From IMG/VR virus record IMGVR_UViG_2667527839_000010: 14,104 nucleotides of DNA; one strand, given 5' to 3'. This DNA is from a virus. Its lineage: Duplodnaviria > Heunggongvirae > Uroviricota > Caudoviricetes. Made by a program: the position numbers and the translations under genes. Of this stretch, positions 3,008-11,419 are shown piece by piece (position 1 is the first letter of the stretch; the number at the start of each line of letters is the position of its first letter). The notes under the pieces are model-generated. The model was not told the DNA's origin, searched no databases, and saw only the letters and a program-made list of their open reading frames with translations.

Positions 3008-3184
3008 ATGGCTAAACAGAAGTGTACCTGGTTATTTGCGGCGATCAACCGCAGTCAACGCAATGCCCGTCCTGTGATGTTAAGGATCACCGCAGATAAC
3101 GAGCGGTCAGCGCGGCGCAGACTTGCCCCGGACTATGTACTGAGCTTTGCCGGGCGCATTCCCTGCGGAGGTGAACATGCGTAA
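3008..3184 (+). CDS. Possible small leader ORF (58 aa) of the early operon
   Basis: ATG 3008 with GAGG at 2996-2999; its stop (TAA 3182-3184) overlaps the next start (ATG 3177), suggesting coupling. This is the only credible part of ORF-track 2450-3184, which is otherwise antisense to the RHH gene. No motif recognised. Confidence 0.3.
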   Translation: MAKQKCTWLFAAINRSQRNARPVMLRITADNERSARRRLAPDYVLSFAGRIPCGGEHA

Positions 3185-3852: not shown

Positions 3853-4232
3853 ACCAGCCGCAGGTTTCCATTTTCCCGGCAGAAATGACCACCGCGCTTT
3901 ACCGGCGGGCTATTGCTTCAGCATGGCGGCAGAAAATGCTGAACGAAACTGGCAGTGATCAGTATGGTCCTCACAGCCTGACGGTGGAGCGTATTGAAAT
4001 GGCCATTGCGCTGCATATCGAGTGCGTACTGATTAACGAGTACGGCGAAGCACAGGGCGCCGCTGCCGCGCTGGCACTGCTGACTGACATGCTGGAGCCG
4101 TCACTGCTGACCGCGCCGCCGGTACTGACCGCGCGCGGCTGTGAAGTGATGGCGGAGATGTACCGCACGCTTCCGGCGGCCTTTGATGACTTCTGCAGTA
4201 CCGGTGTGACGTTGTATCAGGGGGAAGTATGA
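3849..4232 (+). CDS. Hypothetical protein (127 aa), early operon immediately upstream of the primase
   Basis: ATG 3849 preceded by AGGAGG; stop overlaps the primase start (ATGA at 4229-4232). Confidence 0.65.
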   Translation: MNQPQVSIFPAEMTTALYRRAIASAWRQKMLNETGSDQYGPHSLTVERIEMAIALHIECVLINEYGEAQGAAAALALLTDMLEPSLLTAPPVLTARGCEVMAEMYRTLPAAFDDFCSTGVTLYQGEV

Positions 4233-6901
4233 CAATACAGACGGTTACGCAGATTTCAGCTGCCGCACGGGGGAAATGGCCCGTTATTCTCCAGATGCTG
4301 CGTATTGATGTACCTGAAAACGGCAGGCACGGTCCCTGCCCGAAATGTGGGGGCAAGGATCGTTTTCGCCTTGATGACCTTGACGGGCGCGGGACGTGGA
4401 TCTGCAGCCAGTGTGGCAATGGTGACGGTCTGGATCTGGTTAAGCTCGTAACCGGTTACAGCGTCAGAAAGGCTGCGCAGGAGGTGGCGCAGGTGCTTAA
4501 TGTGCCGGATGTGCAGGAACTGCCTGTTAAGCCTGCCAGACAAAAAGCCCCTAAACGCGACATGGGGCTTACCGTGGCGGCGCTGATGAAAGAGAGCCAC
4601 ACGGGAGAAAGCGCCTATCTGACAGGAAAAGGGTTCGCCGGATACCCGGCCTCTCTGACCGGAAGCGTGCAGCATATCAGCGGTAAGGATTTTCCTGCCG
4701 GTTCCCTGCTGTTACCACTCACGACCAACACCGGAGCCGTGACTGGTGCACAGCTTATCGCCCCGACGGGTGAAAAAAGCATACTGCCCGGCAGCACGAT
4801 GAAAGGCGCGTTTGTGTCGCTCAGCCCGTTACCGTCTGAACCACCGGTACAGGTGGTGATTACCGAAGGTTACGCTACGGCGCTGACGGTAAGTCAGCTC
4901 ACTGCCGGATGCGTAGTGGCTGCCATATCTGCGGGCAACCTGCCCAATGTGGCGCAGTCGCTGCGGGCACGCTGGCCTGAGGTAAAAATTATCATCGCCG
5001 GTGATAACGATTTTCAGGACGGAGGTGAGAATCCCGGCAGAGCCTTTGCTGAACGGGCGGCAAAAGCTGTTGGCGGCTGGATGACGCTGCCACCGGGAGA
5101 GATTAAGGCCGACTGGAATGACTTCCATCGGGAGCACGGTATTACCCGCGCCCGTGAAGCCTTTCGTAACGGTCTGGTGCTGTGCGGGGAGGGCCGCACG
5201 CAACTGCCGCACGGGTTCCGTCTTACCCAGGAATATCTCTGGTATGAAAAGCAGGTACAGCGCAACGGTGAGACGGAGATCCAGAACGTCAAAATATGCA
5301 GCCCGCTGCGCGTGACGGCAATCACCTGCGATGCCGATGGCGGTAACTTCGGACGACTGCTGGAATGGGAAGATACGTGGGGTGAGTGTCGCCGCTGGGC
5401 GATGCCGATGGAAATGCTGAGCGGCAGTGGTGAGGAACTGCGCCGGGTACTGCTGGTTAACGGGCTGTCTTATATCAGCACCACCGGTGAGGCACGCGCA
5501 CGCCTGATGGAATATATCTCACTGTGTAAACCGGAACGCCGCGTGACCTGCGTCAGTCGTACTGGCTGGCATGGTCAGGTTTACGTCCTGCAGGATGAGG
5601 TCAGCGGTGAAGGTGCAGAGGGTGTCATTCTCCAGACCACTTCCGTGCAGGGGCGTGATTTCCGCGTGTCGGGCACAACAGAGGAATGGCGGGAGCATGT
5701 ATCCCGCTACTGTACCGGCAACTCCCGCGTGGCATTTGCTGTCAGCCTGGCCTTTGCTGCACCACTGTTACGGCTGGTTGGTATGGACGGCGGCGGCTAC
5801 CACCTCAAAGGGGAATCGACAGACGGTAAGACCACCACCATGAAAGCAGCAACCTCCGTCTGCGGCGGGCCTGACTACTGGCAGACATGGCGGGCCACCG
5901 GCAACGCGCTGGAGGGATGCGCCAGCCGCCGCAACGATGCCGCCATGATGCTTGATGAGATCCGGGAAGTTGACGGACGCGAGGCAGGCAATATCGCCTA
6001 CATGCTGGCAAACGGTCAGGGCAAGGGCCGTGCCGGTACGGACGGTGAGCTGCGTACCCGTAAGCAGTGGCGCCTGTTGTTCTTTTCAACTGGCGAGTTG
6101 TCTCTGACCGAACATGCGGCAAAGGCCGGTGAGCGTACTTTTGCCGGGATGGAAGTCAGGATGATCCAGATCCCCAGCGATTCCGGGAAGTTTGGCGTTT
6201 TTGAGGAGCTGCACGGCTTCGACAGCGGCAAGGCTCTGGCAGAGCATCTTGAATGGGCCACGTCCTGCTACTACGGTTCGCCGTTCCGGGAGTGGCTGAA
6301 AGCACTGACCGCTGATCTTAACGGACTAACGGCACAGGCAAAATCGCTGATGAAGGAATATGCTGCCGCCCTGACTCCGAAAGATGCAGGCAATCAGGTG
6401 GGCCGGGCTGTGAACCGCTTTGCTCTGGTGGCGATGGCAGGTGAACTGGCAACCCGTCTGGGTATCACCGGCTGGCCTGAGGGTGAAGCACTGCGGGCAA
6501 CCCGCGTCTGCCTGAACGCATGGCTGAAAGATCGCGGGCACACCGCCAATCAGGAAGATATCGCCGCACTGGAGCAGGTTCGCAGTTTCTTTACCGCGAA
6601 TCAGTACAGCCGCTTTGCAGACTGGTATGACGAGCGCAACCGCCCCGGCAATATGGTGGGCTGGCGCAGGGTGGAGAAAGGCAGTACCGCGCAGGGCACG
6701 GAAGCTGTCACTACGTTCTATGTCATGCCGTCCGGCTGGAAAGAAATCTGCAGGGGATTTGACCCGCGCAAGGTGGCGCGTCTGTGCGCAGATCGTGGAT
6801 ACCTGCTGCCCTCCACTGATGGCAAACTCCAGACAACCATTCGCCCGCCAGAGATGAATCCCCGCAGGCTCTATGTCTTCAACAGCGAGGTGCCGGGTTA
6901 A
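4229..6901 (+). CDS. Replication primase-helicase, P4 alpha-like (zinc ribbon + TOPRIM + Walker A/B NTPase), 890 aa
   Basis: N-terminal CPKCGGKDRF...WICSQCG (CxxC..CxxC); TOPRIM-like VVITEGYATALTV and IIIAGDNDFQDGG; Walker A HLKGESTDGKTTTM and Walker B-like MMLDEIREV. Uniform coding-like composition over 2.7 kb; internal antisense ORFs are shadows. Confidence 0.9.
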   Translation: MTIQTVTQISAAARGKWPVILQMLRIDVPENGRHGPCPKCGGKDRFRLDDLDGRGTWICSQCGNGDGLDLVKLVTGYSVRKAAQEVAQVLNVPDVQELPVKPARQKAPKRDMGLTVAALMKESHTGESAYLTGKGFAGYPASLTGSVQHISGKDFPAGSLLLPLTTNTGAVTGAQLIAPTGEKSILPGSTMKGAFVSLSPLPSEPPVQVVITEGYATALTVSQLTAGCVVAAISAGNLPNVAQSLRARWPEVKIIIAGDNDFQDGGENPGRAFAERAAKAVGGWMTLPPGEIKADWNDFHREHGITRAREAFRNGLVLCGEGRTQLPHGFRLTQEYLWYEKQVQRNGETEIQNVKICSPLRVTAITCDADGGNFGRLLEWEDTWGECRRWAMPMEMLSGSGEELRRVLLVNGLSYISTTGEARARLMEYISLCKPERRVTCVSRTGWHGQVYVLQDEVSGEGAEGVILQTTSVQGRDFRVSGTTEEWREHVSRYCTGNSRVAFAVSLAFAAPLLRLVGMDGGGYHLKGESTDGKTTTMKAATSVCGGPDYWQTWRATGNALEGCASRRNDAAMMLDEIREVDGREAGNIAYMLANGQGKGRAGTDGELRTRKQWRLLFFSTGELSLTEHAAKAGERTFAGMEVRMIQIPSDSGKFGVFEELHGFDSGKALAEHLEWATSCYYGSPFREWLKALTADLNGLTAQAKSLMKEYAAALTPKDAGNQVGRAVNRFALVAMAGELATRLGITGWPEGEALRATRVCLNAWLKDRGHTANQEDIAALEQVRSFFTANQYSRFADWYDERNRPGNMVGWRRVEKGSTAQGTEAVTTFYVMPSGWKEICRGFDPRKVARLCADRGYLLPSTDGKLQTTIRPPEMNPRRLYVFNSEVPG

Positions 6902-6933
6902 GGCTTTGCGTGAGTCTTATTTATTAAGGGTAA

Positions 6934-7123
6934 CAGGTGAAACAGGTGGAACAACCGTATTTTACAGGGCTGAACCTGTTCCACCTTCTGAAATAGTGAG
7001 GTGGAACAGATGTAACGCCAGCCAATCCGCTGTTCCACCTTGTTACCCGCGATGTTCCACCGGTGCAGTGTATATAAATGCCTTATAAAACAAAGCTGTA
7101 ACACATGTTTCATCTGTTCCACC
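6934..7123. repeat. Iteron cluster: six perfect copies of TGTTCCACC in both orientations (putative ori/crr for the primase-helicase)
   Basis: TGTTCCACC at 6977-6985, 7031-7039, 7053-7061, 7115-7123; its complement GGTGGAACA at 6945-6953 and 7000-7008; degenerate copies at 6934-6944 and 7041-7048. Lies immediately 3' of the primase gene. Confidence 0.6.
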
Positions 7124-7211
7124 GCATCAGGGACATAAAGCAGACTGAAACAGAGGGCATTTTTATCTGGCTGGCTTTCATAGCCACGTCTGAATAACCG
7201 CAAGCGTCCGT

Positions 7212-7267
7212 TGTGCCAGCCACCACACACTGAGCACCGGTAGTGTGCTTGTGTCAGCCACGACACA
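7212..7267 (+). promoter_or_regulatory. Two tandem TGT-N12-ACA dyads upstream of the late operon (Ogr/Delta-type activator site candidates)
   Basis: TGT(7212-7214)-N12-ACA(7227-7229) and TGT(7250-7252)-N12-ACA(7265-7267), within 20-bp direct repeats ttgtgCcagccacCacacaC / ttgtgTcagccacGacacaA (17/20 identical), 35-90 bp upstream of the Sid-like start. Confidence 0.4.
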
Positions 7268-7301
7268 ATTGACGTAACGAACTAACCCGACAGGAGAAGT
7301 C

Positions 7302-8045
7302 ATGAACAACACCGCAGTGAATAACAACCTTTCCACTTTTCCGGCTGTAACGCAGCGGGCACTGGAAACCATGAACACAGCCAGAAACGCATGGCTTGAA
7401 GCACGTCGTCAGCAGAAAGCGGCAGCGGATAATATTGCGACAATCCGCCAGCGTCGCGCTGAAATGGAAGCCACGACGAACACACTGAATGAGGAGTGGC
7501 GCACGCTGTTTCGTGAAAGTCAGGGCGTGGTCTCAAAGGAAATGAAAAAACTGCGCACGGAAATTGCGCTGGGACGAGAAACGCTTGAGGATTTTGATGA
7601 GCTGCTGGCGGCTCAGGAAAGCGAAAATGCACTTTTGCCGCAGAAAGCTGCAGAATTAGCCGGAAAGTATATCCACGCGCATAACATTCTTGTGGATATT
7701 CGCGCAAAACAAATCTGGGAGGATTTTATGCAGTCGCATGGAAAAGCGCTTATTCAGACGCTGAGCCTGCTTAAATCCACAATGGGCCGGGAAGCCAGTG
7801 CCGTTGTGGGTGTGGTGAATTCAGTTAATGACCCGGACACAGTGCTGAAAGACTTTATTCATAAACATATCACCAGACCGGCTCTGGCTAACGATGCGAT
7901 GCCTGAGCAGGACCCGGTGTTTAAACTGGCGGGAGTTGCCCCGGATTATGCGGCGCGTCTGGATTTCAGTAATCAACTCTCTCCGGCAGCTATGCATAAA
8001 ATTAAGGTTCGTCAGGAACTTGCTGAGAAGGAGAAAGCAGTATGA
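7302..8045 (+). CDS. sid: Sid-like (P4 external scaffold / size-determination family), 247 aa
   Basis: ATG 7302 with AGGAG at 7292-7296. Size close to P4 Sid; shares N-terminal and central motifs with the Psu-like gene that follows (NAWLEARRQQKAA..., EDFMQSHGKALIQTL), consistent with the Sid/Psu paralogy. Family assignment is from remembered motifs and context, not alignment. Confidence 0.55.
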   Translation: MNNTAVNNNLSTFPAVTQRALETMNTARNAWLEARRQQKAAADNIATIRQRRAEMEATTNTLNEEWRTLFRESQGVVSKEMKKLRTEIALGRETLEDFDELLAAQESENALLPQKAAELAGKYIHAHNILVDIRAKQIWEDFMQSHGKALIQTLSLLKSTMGREASAVVGVVNSVNDPDTVLKDFIHKHITRPALANDAMPEQDPVFKLAGVAPDYAARLDFSNQLSPAAMHKIKVRQELAEKEKAV

Positions 8046-8593
8046 CGGCCCGAGGCACGCCTGACCAGGCACTTACCAGTTTTCGGAATGCCCGTATTCT
8101 GTGGGCCGGACATAATGAGAGCCGAAAAGCCATTGAACAACAGATAACATCTCTCCTCGCTGCCACAGAAAAACCAGCAGATTATGCCCGACAGCTCGAA
8201 TTACTGCGGGAACGTCTGGATGTGCTGAAATGGCAAATTAACTGTGCTGCGCGCGAATGCATTTACTCGCAGCATTTACTGATGGAGGCCTGCACAGAAG
8301 CCGCTCTCAGCAATTTTATGCAGGCGAATGGGGCAGCCCTGACATCTGCACTGGCTCCGTTCCTGAAGGGGCGCGGAGGGGTTGACGTTGCGTCCCGTAT
8401 ATTACGCAGTGCTCTGGTTCGCCAGCTGGCAATAACACCGCCTGAAATTGCCGGGGATTATCGTGAGATCCTGGATGAATCCGGTTTGATGCCTGACCCC
8501 GGGATGATTCGTGATTGCCAGGGTTCTTACACCCCGGCACAACATCTGCGTTTTCAGCAACGCCTGAATGACATTAACGATATACAGGAGTGA
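8042..8593 (+). CDS. psu: Psu-like (polarity suppression / capsid decoration family), 183 aa
   Basis: Start overlaps the Sid-like stop (ATGA at 8042-8045). Motifs LELLRERLDVLKWQINCAARECIYS, FMQANGAALTSALAP and YTPAQHLRFQQR resemble P4 Psu as I recall it. Confidence 0.6.
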   Translation: MTARGTPDQALTSFRNARILWAGHNESRKAIEQQITSLLAATEKPADYARQLELLRERLDVLKWQINCAARECIYSQHLLMEACTEAALSNFMQANGAALTSALAPFLKGRGGVDVASRILRSALVRQLAITPPEIAGDYREILDESGLMPDPGMIRDCQGSYTPAQHLRFQQRLNDINDIQE

Positions 8594-8598
8594 TATTA

Positions 8599-8871
8599 AT
8601 GGCACTTAAATGTCCGGAATGCGGTACAGTTGCACACGCCAGAACAGCAGCCTATGAAGCTCCGTCAGTTAAACGCTCGTGGTATCAGTGCCAGAATCTG
8701 GAATGTTCCTGCACATTTACGGCACTGGAGAGTGTGGATAAGATAATCATGAAACCCCGGCGCAATGAACAGCTATCAGACAAAGCACAATCCCCGGAAA
8801 AACAACAGAAAACGCTCAATCGCTATGGCTCCGCGTCAAAACTGTCAAGCCGTCAGCAGATTCCTGTCTGA
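8599..8871 (+). CDS. ogr: Ogr/Delta-family zinc-finger late transcription activator, 90 aa
   Basis: MALKCPECGTVAHARTAAYEAPSVKRSWYQCQNLECSCTF has the CxxC-N22-CxxC arrangement and HART/YQCQN signature of P2 Ogr / P4 Delta. ATG 8599 with AGGAG (8586-8590); the track GTG at 8590 overlaps the Psu-like stop. Confidence 0.85.
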   Translation: MALKCPECGTVAHARTAAYEAPSVKRSWYQCQNLECSCTFTALESVDKIIMKPRRNEQLSDKAQSPEKQQKTLNRYGSASKLSSRQQIPV

Positions 8872-8890
8872 TTAGAAAGAACGCCCACGT

Positions 8891-8917
8891 AATCCCGGTC
8901 CAGTACCGGGATTTTTT
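8891..8917 (+). terminator. Rho-independent terminator of the late operon
   Basis: Perfect 9-bp stem aatcccggt (8891-8899) / accgggatt (8905-8913), 5-nt loop, followed by TTTT (8914-8917), 20 bp after the ogr stop. Confidence 0.6.
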
Positions 8918-9072
8918 ACCCCCTTTTCCTGGCTGACATGAGAGCGCATGAGTGCATGTCTATGGCGCATGAAAACGCATGAGTCTTATGCACCATTTTT
9001 GACGAGAAAACCCTTGTGTGCTGGCTTCTGAGACGATTAATGAGGTGCATGAAAACCAGTCTGTTAAGCGAA

Positions 9073-9100
9073 GCGGGCAGGCGTGCGGGGCTGCCCGCAC
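9073..9100. other. GC-rich palindromic element, possible cos-like site
   Basis: gcgggcag(9073-9080)-N10-ctgcccgc(9091-9098); the core ggcgtgcgggg resembles the start of P2/186 cohesive ends as I recall them, and it sits where P4 carries cos (after the late operon). Confidence 0.25.
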
Positions 9101-9278
9101 TAACGGTGATAATTGTGATGTTGCGATATCAAGAGAGATATAAGAATGCTGTATTCAATAAGGTATTGCTTTCAATTGTTAGATTTATTTTTGTTTAAAT
9201 GTCAATGGTTTAGGTGGTTGCTGGCAGCCAGTACGCTTACTTATTGAAAATCTCGCATCTTTTGCTATCCTAACCCTA

Positions 9279-9479
9279 CCTTTACGCGCGGGATAACAGG
9301 TTTATCCTTGTCGGGCGTTTCGCCAGACACTAATTTATTGTGGACATTTAGGGTTGCGCTTTAGCACTTTCAGCAAGATCCTTCATGCCACTGCGTTCCA
9401 TTCAGGATCTTGCTGAAAGTCTAAAGCGCATCCTTTAGGTAAAGGGGTCGAAGGTGGCTGGTTAGCCACCTTTTCTTTT
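9279..9479 (+). ncRNA. Candidate retron msr-msd non-coding RNA (boundaries tentative)
   Basis: Structured leader upstream of the effector-RT operon. Possible promoter: TTGAAA (9244-9249), 16 bp, TGcTATCCT (9263-9271). Short hairpins ggataa-caggt-ttatcc (9291-9307) and gggcg-ttt-cgcc. Long hairpin with arms 9356-9382 and 9404-9429 (26/27 bp complementary, one bulge, 21-nt loop) as candidate msd. Possible short a1/a2 pair cctttac (9279-9285) / gtaaagg (9439-9445), only 7 bp. No covariance model was run. Confidence 0.4.
9453..9479 (+). terminator. Intrinsic-terminator-like hairpin between the ncRNA region and the effector gene (possible attenuator)
   Basis: 7-bp stem ggtggct (9453-9459) / agccacc (9464-9470), 4-nt loop, then TTTTCTTTT (9471-9479); the effector SD (GGAG 9481-9484) and start (9499) follow directly. 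Confidence 0.5.
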
Positions 9480-9498
9480 GGAGTAGGGGGTCACAAGG

Positions 9499-10485
9499 GT
9501 GAGTGATTCTGCATATATGAATGCATTACAAGAGCAGTTTGGAGATTTGAAATATTCAAATTTCACTGTTCAGTTCATGCCTCCTATTATTTTTGTTTGT
9601 GGTGGGCCGATAAATTCCACTCCAATGAGTGTACGAGACCACATATTTACTTATGTAGCAGGCCACAAACCTGAATTGTCAGATTCTCTTATTTTAGCTG
9701 AGAACTTCCATGACTACTTCAGAGAGGGGGCATATTCAGATCTAATGAGCTTTGAAGATGATATTGCAAATATTTCAACATTAGTTGTTATCTGTTTAGA
9801 AAGTGCAGGTTCGTTAGTTGAGCTTGGATTATTTGTTAATAGGAAGTCTCTAGCTCAAAAATTGCATGTAGTCGCACCATTTGAGGAGATTGAGGGAAAT
9901 GAACGAAAAAATATTCCTGCTAGATCTTCTTTTATATATTTAGGCCCTTTGGAGTATCTTAAAAAAATAGATGAGGCCTCAGTATCAGTTTATCCATGGC
10001 CAAAATCGGATCGTATGAAATATGATGAGGTTGAGCTTATCTACCATGATATTCATTCTAGATTAAAACGTGTAAAAAAAACGGAGCGATATAACCCTGA
10101 AAATACTGGGCACCTAGCTATATTGATTTACGAAATAATCCTTTTATCAGAACCAATCAAGAAAAGCGAAATAGAGTGGGCACTATACTGTATGGATATA
10201 GATGTGCCACAAAAAATAATATCTCGTTTACTTTATTTGCTTGAAAAGATGAAATTAACCTCATCATTATCTTACAGTGGTACAGACTACTTTTATTCCC
10301 GAGGGCATAGAGAGAGTAAACTTAAATTTGGTATCAGTGCTAGTGGTAAAATAAAGGATTCTATGAATATTAAGGTTGCAATCCGACAATCTTACTTAAG
10401 TATGGATGCTAAAGATATGGACGAGACTGCAAAAAAAAGGAAAAATGCTCTAAATCAAATCAATATCGTGCGTGGAGGGGCTTAG
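9499..10485 (+). CDS. Retron effector: nucleoside 2-deoxyribosyltransferase-like (NDT-like) domain protein with a C-terminal putative DNA-binding region, 328 aa
   Basis: N-terminal PIIFVCGGP and STLVVICLESAGSLVELGLFV fit the NDT fold (Rossmann-like strand, then a conserved Glu in a VELG context); C-terminal half is a separate, helix-rich region. GTG start at 9499 with GGAG/AGGGGG upstream; alternative ATG at 9517. Stop TAG 10483-10485 abuts the RT start. Confidence 0.8.
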   Translation: MSDSAYMNALQEQFGDLKYSNFTVQFMPPIIFVCGGPINSTPMSVRDHIFTYVAGHKPELSDSLILAENFHDYFREGAYSDLMSFEDDIANISTLVVICLESAGSLVELGLFVNRKSLAQKLHVVAPFEEIEGNERKNIPARSSFIYLGPLEYLKKIDEASVSVYPWPKSDRMKYDEVELIYHDIHSRLKRVKKTERYNPENTGHLAILIYEIILLSEPIKKSEIEWALYCMDIDVPQKIISRLLYLLEKMKLTSSLSYSGTDYFYSRGHRESKLKFGISASGKIKDSMNIKVAIRQSYLSMDAKDMDETAKKRKNALNQINIVRGGA

Positions 10486-10486
10486 A

Positions 10487-11419
10487 ATGGAGTTGCTAAG
10501 TTATATTTCAAAAGGTCTTTTTCTTAGCGAAGAAGAGGCTAAAAGGTATATTGTTACTATTCCACGCAGATATAAAATTTATCCTATCGCCAAAAGAAAT
10601 GGTAATGGATATAGATTAATTGCACAACCAGCTAGGCAAGTTAAAGCCTTACAGAAGGTAGTAATCAATCATATGTTGGCTAATTTGAAAGTTCATGAAA
10701 ATGCTTTCGCTTATGAAGCCGATAAAAGTATTAGATCTAATGCGTTAATGCATTGTAATAATGATTATTTGCTTAAAATGGATTTTAAAAACTTTTTTAT
10801 GAGTATCAAACCCCATAATCTTTTATCTGTCTTAAAAGATTATGGCGTTGAACTAACTGATACTGATATCTTTGTTCTTAAAAATCTTTTCTTCTGGAAG
10901 TTAAGAAGAAATAGCCCATTACGCCTAAGTGTTGGAGCACCTTCTTCTCCCATTATTTCAAATGCAGTAATGTATTTCTTCGATGAGGAAATATCGAAAA
11001 GATGCAAGGATTTGGATATTACCTACTCAAGGTATGCTGATGATCTTACGTTTAGCACCAAAGTCAAAGGAGCTTTATTTGATGTTCCTAAGTTAGTAAG
11101 GGAAGTTCTTAACGTAGTAAATCTTAGGAATATTAAAATAAACCATGAGAAAACAGTTTTTACCTCAAGGAAGTTTAATAGACATGTAACTGGTGTAACT
11201 ATTACGACTGATGGTTATTTGTCTTTAGGTCGTGATAGAAAGCGTCTTTTAAGAAGTAAAATACATTATTACGTGTGTGGGGTTTTATCTGAGAAAGAAA
11301 TTCTAACCCTTAAAGGAGAATTAGGCTATGCGAAATTTATTGAACATAAATTCTTTACCTCCATGATTAAGAAATATGGGGATGATGTAATCAGCGAAAT
11401 TTCAAAATATGAAATTTAA
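10487..11419 (+). CDS. ret: Retron-type reverse transcriptase, 310 aa from ATG 10487 (315 aa if GTG 10472)
   Basis: Retron RT motifs: YRLIAQPARQVKALQKVV; LLKMDFKNFFMSI (cf. DxxxFFPSI); SVGAPSSPIISNAVMYFFD (cf. QGAPTSP); YSRYADDLTFS (YADD); NHEKT; VTGVTIT (retron-specific VTG). GGAGG at 10474-10478 precedes ATG 10487. AT-rich composition matches the effector gene. Confidence 0.9.
   Translation: MELLSYISKGLFLSEEEAKRYIVTIPRRYKIYPIAKRNGNGYRLIAQPARQVKALQKVVINHMLANLKVHENAFAYEADKSIRSNALMHCNNDYLLKMDFKNFFMSIKPHNLLSVLKDYGVELTDTDIFVLKNLFFWKLRRNSPLRLSVGAPSSPIISNAVMYFFDEEISKRCKDLDITYSRYADDLTFSTKVKGALFDVPKLVREVLNVVNLRNIKINHEKTVFTSRKFNRHVTGVTITTDGYLSLGRDRKRLLRSKIHYYVCGVLSEKEILTLKGELGYAKFIEHKFFTSMIKKYGDDVISEISKYEI

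Follow-up and report, generated by a model that had tools for sequence, protein, structure and literature searches.

The satellite and its sid operon

The 14,104-nt stretch of DNA analyzed here, referred to throughout as the window, represents a P4-like satellite of Escherichia coli, integrated beside tRNA-Leu. Of 5426 complete E. coli genomes, 333 (~6%) contain the 500 bases around the pair of TGT-N12-ACA dyads with which this report is concerned, nearly always at a chromosomal position. In NZ_AP021890, where the element adjoins a tRNA-Leu gene, its order begins with an integrase, a helix-turn-helix regulator, an Icd-like protein, a DUF5375 protein and a TOPRIM/DUF927 protein, and continues with a "septation initiation protein", a polarity suppression protein, an ogr/Delta-like zinc-finger protein, a retron St85-type effector and a reverse transcriptase. 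Around the promoter region of the window itself the order is alpha-like primase, iterons, sid-like gene, psu, ogr/delta and terminator.

The sid-like, psu and delta genes lie next to one another on the same strand, with the terminator after them. The first gene of this operon, located on the plus strand at 7302-8045, encodes a 247-aa protein that the initial annotation had called Sid-like. That identification was upheld both by a match to the Pfam family Psu (1.8e-9, weak, as expected for Sid) and by a BLASTP alignment to the Sid protein of P4 (24% identity over 226 aa, E = 1e-12); the same product is listed in RefSeq as a 'septation initiation protein'. The second gene, psu (8042-8593, plus strand), encodes a polarity suppression protein of 183 aa, based on its RefSeq annotation and on a Pfam Psu match of 1.4e-44. 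The third gene, delta/ogr (8599-8871, plus strand), encodes a single-domain C4 zinc-finger protein of 90 aa, whose earlier designation as the ogr product agrees with its match to the Pfam family Ogr_Delta (9.4e-16). This protein aligns to the first as well as to the second half of the 166-aa Delta protein of P4 and is presumed to be the cognate activator, encoded within the operon that it controls. The operon is closed by an intrinsic terminator at 8891-8917 on the plus strand (9-bp stem, 5-nt loop and U run), which has a fold energy of -13.2 kcal/mol (z = -3.3), and the same hairpin is present 3' of delta in a related locus, L116. That one promoter serves psu, delta and sid is stated in PMC13586616, citing Reiter et al. 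1998.

Upstream of the iterons lies the gene for the alpha-like replication protein (4229-6901), which matches the Zn-ribbon primase, Toprim and DUF927 families of Pfam. The protein is a hybrid: the Zn-ribbon/Toprim primase at its N terminus shares 38% identity with P4 alpha across 321 aa, but DUF927 occupies its C-terminal part in place of the helicase/origin-binding region of the P4 type. The iterons, GGTGGAACA, are present in at least seven copies in both orientations at 6935-7125 and are one inserted G apart from the type-1 repeat of P4, GGTGAACA. The alpha-like and sid operons are co-directional in the window, unlike the divergent pair in P4. A search for an intrinsic terminator between the two operons (6901-7302) found none, and read-through from the early operon could therefore supply the first Delta molecules and prime the positive feedback that is proposed below.

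Past the delta terminator, a run of GCATG(A/C) repeats at 8945-9055 lies ahead of a stretch at 9071-9100, AAGCGGGCA GGCGTGCGGGGCTGCCCGCAC, that resembles the P4/P2 cos junction, AAGCGGGCG GGCGAGGCGGGGAAAGCAC. This stretch is probably the cos site of the satellite, with cohesive ends unlike those of P2 and P4, a difference that is a hint that the helper is not P2 itself but another member of its family. Beyond cos, the satellite carries a retron as cargo (9200-11419), comprising an effector of the retron St85 family (9499-10485) that has no Pfam match and a reverse transcriptase (10472-11419) that matches RVT_1. Long inverted repeats at ~9340-9430 are likely to be the msr/msd RNA.

The dyad pair and the predicted core promoter

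The sequence from 7200 to 7304 is gcaagcgtccgTTGTGCCAGCCACCACACActgagcaccggtagtgtgcTTGTGTCAGCCACGACACAattgacgtaacgaactaacccgacaggagaagtcATG. Within it are two TGT-N12-ACA dyads on the plus strand, an upstream dyad at 7212-7229 (TGTGCCAGCCACCACACA), designated site I, and a downstream dyad at 7250-7267 (TGTGTCAGCCACGACACA), designated site II, both of which were perfect for the pattern in a search of the whole window. Each is contained in one copy of a direct repeat, at 7211-7229 and 7249-7267, for which the repeat finder returned a length of 19 nt, 17 of 19 identical positions and starts 38 nt apart. The initial annotation had described two 20-bp direct repeats, each with a dyad, just upstream of the Sid-like gene. 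The dyads and their coordinates were borne out, as was their proximity to the gene, with the downstream dyad ending 34 nt before the ATG at 7302; the length of the repeats is 19 nt and not 20. PMC3931495, with reference to Christie & Calendar 1985 and Julien & Calendar 1995, gives TGT-N12-ACA as the P2 late-promoter consensus.

Taken by itself, the bare pattern is common, as there were five matches to it in the window versus 3.35 expected, and five or more were obtained in 53 of 200 shuffles. The non-random part is the configuration of the dyads: by a rough calculation, the chance of finding a dyad no more than 100 nt upstream of a given ATG and a second one exactly 38-39 nt further is ~1e-5. 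The two sites were also scored with a position weight matrix made solely from the sites of other lineages. Site II scored 26.1 bits and site I 22.6 bits, and the next best position in the window scored 6.8 bits; the maxima of 200 shuffled windows had a mean of 9.6 bits, the highest being 20.7 bits. The remaining TGT-N12-ACA matches, at 855, 4525 and 8611, are within coding sequence and scored 5.9 bits or less. Neither a third Delta-type site nor a second late promoter resembling PLL of P4 was found with the matrix in the 14.1-kb window (6.8 bits or less), and judging from these scores the satellite appears to own just one Delta-responsive promoter.

The sole -10-like hexamer conserved across the family is CACAAT (7264-7269, plus strand), which matches TATAAT at four of six positions and overlaps the ACA half of site II. 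The predicted transcription start is the A at 7276 (+/-2 nt) on the plus strand, 7 nt after the hexamer, and would give a leader of 26 nt; this placement of +1 at about 7276 draws on the 4/6 match of the -10 hexamer and on analogy. A Shine-Dalgarno sequence for the sid-like gene, AGGAG, is present at 7292-7296 on the plus strand, and its G7294 does not vary among the representatives of the lineages. A motif in the -35 region (-38 to -32), CGGTAGT (7238-7244, plus strand), recurs in several lineages and is partly conserved but is a poor match to TTGACA, and the -35 candidates TAGTGT and GTAGTG are weak matches to the consensus. No sigma-70 consensus promoter was found in 6850-7350, which fits an activator-dependent promoter.

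Taking 7276 as the predicted +1, site I starts at -64 and has its center at -55.5, and site II spans -26 to -9 and has its center at -17.5. Site II thus overlaps both the spacer and the predicted -10 hexamer, of which its ACA half makes up bases -11 to -9. The initial annotation had considered the downstream dyad to be too near the ATG to sit at -55, and had not placed either site relative to the start of transcription. The first point holds, given the predicted center of site II at -17.5, and comparison, on the basis of the predicted +1, offers an answer to the second. The upstream dyad alone would be the -55 site and the downstream dyad a promoter-proximal second site.

Conservation of the dyad pair among sid loci

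Loci with sid were gathered through Sid homology, giving a total of 156 usable loci. Sixteen of these were from GTDB contigs (one genome per species, identified by a Sid profile search, with Sid 41-100% identical) and included the genera Shigella, Enterobacter, Citrobacter, Pantoea, Mixta and Scandinavium. The loci from IMG/VR were 79 of the P4 type and 61 of the family of the window (Sid 39-100% identical). Two perfect dyads were present upstream of sid in 156/156 loci, which share descent and so represent far fewer independent events, with the dyads of 148 loci spaced by 38 bp and those of the other eight by 39 bp. The background density of dyads in the surveyed loci was 0.33 per kb (634 kb). 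The constancy of the 38-bp spacing needs no special cause, since each site would be separately anchored to the position of the polymerase.

The 156 loci represent 59 distinct promoter sequences, which fell into 13 lineages upon clustering at 85% ungapped identity. Invariant across the 13 lineages, to which P4 belongs, were the TGT of site II, a C in the N12 of site II (window position 7261), CACAATT (7264-7270), G7294 and the final A of site I, noting that in the anchoring used for this comparison site I is displaced by one column in the 39-bp lineages. The invariance of TGT and ACA is partly circular, because the perfect pattern was used to locate the sites, and yet there were no loci without a pair. 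Within the lineage of the window (18 distinct sequences) variable columns numbered two of 36 in the dyads versus 41 of 107 in the flanking sequence (Fisher p = 1e-4), and the variation in the flanks was 29/60 upstream, 5/20 between the sites and 7/34 after site II. Judged by this contrast, the dyad columns are evidently under purifying selection within the lineage of the window. With only two of the 36 dyad columns variable, the N12 interior is constrained inside the lineage as well, though it differs between lineages. A Delta homologue of ~90 aa with a single domain was identified just downstream of sid in all 16 GTDB loci, and these homologues were 41-49% identical to P2 Ogr.

The pattern of conservation has a bearing on whether the repeats might instead function as RNA or DNA hairpins, for instance as a terminator or attenuator of read-through from the alpha-like gene. 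At site II of the window a 6-nt loop separates the arms of a perfect 7-bp inverted repeat (TTGTGTC/GACACAA), and the alpha operon is co-directional, with no terminator found at 6901-7302, both of which would suit such a function. However, nothing stands out in the RNA fold of 7195-7301 (z = -0.48, with 63 of 200 shuffles folding as well), there is no T run after site II, and the extended stem is unconserved, with pairing confined to TGT and ACA in site II of P4 and in the L015 and L147 types. The elements that are conserved, namely the outer triplets, the right arm and CACAATT, fit a protein site over a promoter and not a helix, and we find it hardly conceivable that the repeats act as hairpins. 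No Rfam family scored above threshold anywhere in the window.

In six related satellites, all of which have the order sid-delta, a second perfect dyad pair was observed, with the two dyads 38 bp apart (2821-2876 in L116; also in L109, L117-L119 and L127). This second pair is located ~290 nt after delta, past the terminator and a cos-like stretch, and 35 nt upstream of a gene for a 103-aa protein with a Phage_TAC_7 match (1.2e-14), that is, a tail assembly chaperone of the P2 gpE type. Its position suggests that the two-dyad cassette has been reused to place cargo or hijacking genes under Delta control. A second dyad pair of this type is absent from the window.

The location of the second pair is also relevant to the possibility that the dyads form part of the origin of replication, with the alpha-like primase-helicase as their binding protein. 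The iterons stop ~90 bp upstream of the dyads, and in P4 the annotated rep_origin (9086-9809) spans the sid promoter, Psid, so a role in replication has some positional appeal. The dyad sequences are nevertheless unrelated to the iterons, their distance is fixed to the sid ATG and the -10 element and not to the iterons, and in those relatives that have a second pair it is far from any origin, before the tail-chaperone gene. Membership of the origin is therefore, in our view, exceedingly improbable.

A further consideration is that the pair might also drive a leftward promoter, in a bidirectional arrangement like that of PP and PO of P2, which would be compatible with a rightward promoter for sid. 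For a minus-strand start at ~7203 the geometry is a mirror image, with site II at -55.5 and site I at -17.5, albeit one that is symmetric by construction, and the reverse complement of 7210-7215, CACAAC, is -10-like. This hexamer, however, has no T at the critical -7 position, conservation between lineages does not extend to the bases 5' of site I, in contrast to the invariant CACAATT after site II, and there is no annotated leftward gene at 6901-7212. As such, additional leftward transcription from the pair is considered very unlikely.

In 112 of the 156 sid loci, P4 included, the survey also identified a box, CCTTTTCCTGGCT(G/T)GCC(A/G)G, whose distance upstream from site I is 23-29 nt. The window has a variant of it, TTTTTATCTGGCTGGCTTTCATAGCCA, ~45 nt upstream of site I (7160-7186) and a second copy, CCTTTTCCTGGCTGAC, just past the delta terminator (8920-8937). 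The box may be the site of another regulator.

Proposed regulation of the sid promoter and comparison with P4 and P2

The genome of P4 (NC_001609) has perfect TGT-N12-ACA dyads at 9493-9510 and 9531-9548 and its sid ATG at 9583. Measured from the sid ATG, the two dyad starts are at -90 and -52, and the spacing is 38 bp, values that are identical in P4 and the window. These offsets were apparent when the sequences were anchored on the dyads and the ATG, which gave an ungapped comparison, whereas pairwise MAFFT alignment with P4 added gaps that hid the register. The CACAAT that overlaps the ACA half of the downstream dyad is at the same position in P4 (9545-9550), the TAAC around window position 7276 is found in P4 at the same offset, and the -35 region is weak in both promoters. 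Moreover, both promoters lie 3' of origin-type iterons and both drive sid, psu and delta. Beyond the dyad ends and the -10 element the window promoter has diverged from that of P4, and the Sid proteins of the two are just 24% identical despite the matching offsets of the dyads. A blastn search of 6900-8900 against the phage collection yielded no DNA-level match, and the orthology with P4 is therefore positional and at the level of proteins only. Based on these correspondences, we consider it very probable that 7212-7276 is the orthologue of the P4 sid late promoter and that it is Delta/Ogr-dependent, the two dyads being the activator-binding sites through which genes for capsid hijacking are turned on.

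P4 Delta is reported to footprint on a -55 site in all of the P2 and P4 late promoters. The P4 sid promoter reportedly has a two-site architecture like that of the window promoter, and the Delta footprints in it are said to be located at -55 and, promoter-proximally, at ~-18. A full-text literature search found no paper describing the Psid sites.

The claim that activator sites of this kind are centered near -55 was checked against the P2 record, in which both the activator sites and the starts of transcription are annotated for the four late promoters, and was confirmed. The dyad-like elements start at -64 (PO and PP), -65 (PV) and -66 (PF) relative to the annotated starts, and at the predicted +1 of 7276 site I of the window, with its start at -64 and center at -55.5, has the same position as those of PO and PP. 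The stretches with activator sites in the P2 record are 3057-3087, 10239-10266 and 17555-17583.

These comparisons are also of value in considering whether the dyads are operators of a different regulator, such as a repressor of the satellite or of its helper, with the likeness to Ogr/Delta sites being coincidental. Dyad symmetry by itself names no binding protein, and site II overlaps the core promoter, as would be typical of a repressor operator. On the other hand, the dyads match the Ogr/Delta signature exactly, site I is located at -64/-55.5 from the predicted +1 as in the annotated P2 activator sites, a Delta homologue was present in the operon at 16/16 of the GTDB loci that were checked, and there is no consensus promoter present for a repressor to shut off. 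It is thus quite improbable that the dyads serve an unrelated regulator.

The initial annotation had proposed that the dyads mark the Ogr/Delta-responsive late promoter of the sid operon, and this proposal is supported by the sequence, including the satellite's own Delta gene, the offsets shared with P4, the presence of the pair at 156/156 loci and the lack of a sigma-70 consensus. PMC8628076, citing Halling & Calendar 1990, states that Delta and Ogr both drive the late genes of P2 and P4. For the window we infer activator dependence and the use of the promoter by helper Ogr as well. In the mechanism that we propose, a promoter with a usable -10 element (CACAAT, 7264-7269) and without a functional -35 element would be silent by itself. 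A dimer of Delta, the product of 8599-8871, or Ogr from a P2-like helper, would bind to site I and, once bound there, recruit RNA polymerase in the manner of a class-I-type activator. Activation by the Ogr/Delta family reportedly requires the C-terminal domain of the alpha subunit of RNA polymerase. The resulting transcript would start at ~7276, span sid, psu and delta and end at the terminator at 8891-8917, and the location of delta inside its own operon would create a positive feedback.

The role of site II is more difficult to assign. The TGT of this site (-26 to -24) is in a part of the spacer that is unconstrained by sigma-70, so its invariance argues for a real protein contact. At the same time, the ACA half consists of -10 bases that are captured by sigma region 2 on melting, and simultaneous occupancy of site II by the activator and of the -10 element by sigma-70 consequently seems unlikely. 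Site II is also closer to the family consensus than is site I, which argues against simple repression. Our best guess is that site II is a second activator site that would cap or tune expression by competing with sigma-70 as Delta accumulates. We favor such a feedback limiter over co-activation, while recognizing that it falls somewhat short of an even chance of being correct; a co-activating role for site II is possible but, on balance, doubtful. We also tentatively suggest that site II might be obligatory in every P4-like sid promoter and not peculiar to the tandem-domain Delta of P4, although the opposite would be less surprising. If site II is indeed a brake, then occlusion of base -11 by Delta would make the promoter a self-limiting pulse generator of satellite late expression contained in 56 bp, and the cassette that precedes cargo genes such as that for the gpE-like tail chaperone would be a portable module.

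Overall, the dyad pair is real, the first reading of it was right, and the feature is an ordinary one. The result assigns the regulatory switch of a helper-exploitation operon in a satellite lineage that is present in ~6% of complete E. coli genomes and that also bears a retron defense system, and it yields a predicted start of transcription along with two defined targets for mutation. In addition, the conservation of the two-site Psid design far beyond P4 should be of use in the annotation of P4-like satellites and to those who employ Delta/Psid pairs as orthogonal activator-promoter parts.

In relation to P2, the activator of the window and P2 Ogr belong to the same family of small zinc-finger proteins, but the P2 promoters have one site each and no promoter-proximal second site, PP and PO sharing a single site bidirectionally, whereas the window promoter has two perfect sites. 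The sites of P2 are imperfect, being TGT-N12-CCA in PO, PP and PF (one mismatch) and TGT-N11-ACA in PV, and all of the satellite Psid sites examined are perfect, which fits higher-affinity sites in satellites than in their helpers. In relation to P4, the genes in the window are ordered sid-psu-delta versus sid-delta-psu. The former order has been reported for ~20% of P4-like elements (PMC8628076). The activator of the window is a single-domain protein of 90 aa versus the tandem 166-aa Delta of P4, and PLL, the second Delta-activated promoter of P4, whose perfect dyad at 9133-9150 precedes the leftward operon, has no counterpart in the window. These differences from P4 (the gene order, the single-domain Delta, the co-directional operons and the lack of a PLL-like site) leave the kind of system unchanged, and the current understanding of P4-like systems is likewise unaltered. 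To that understanding our comparison makes one small addition, which is that, as judged from the aligned loci, every sampled member of the family has the promoter-proximal site, even satellites with a single-domain Delta.
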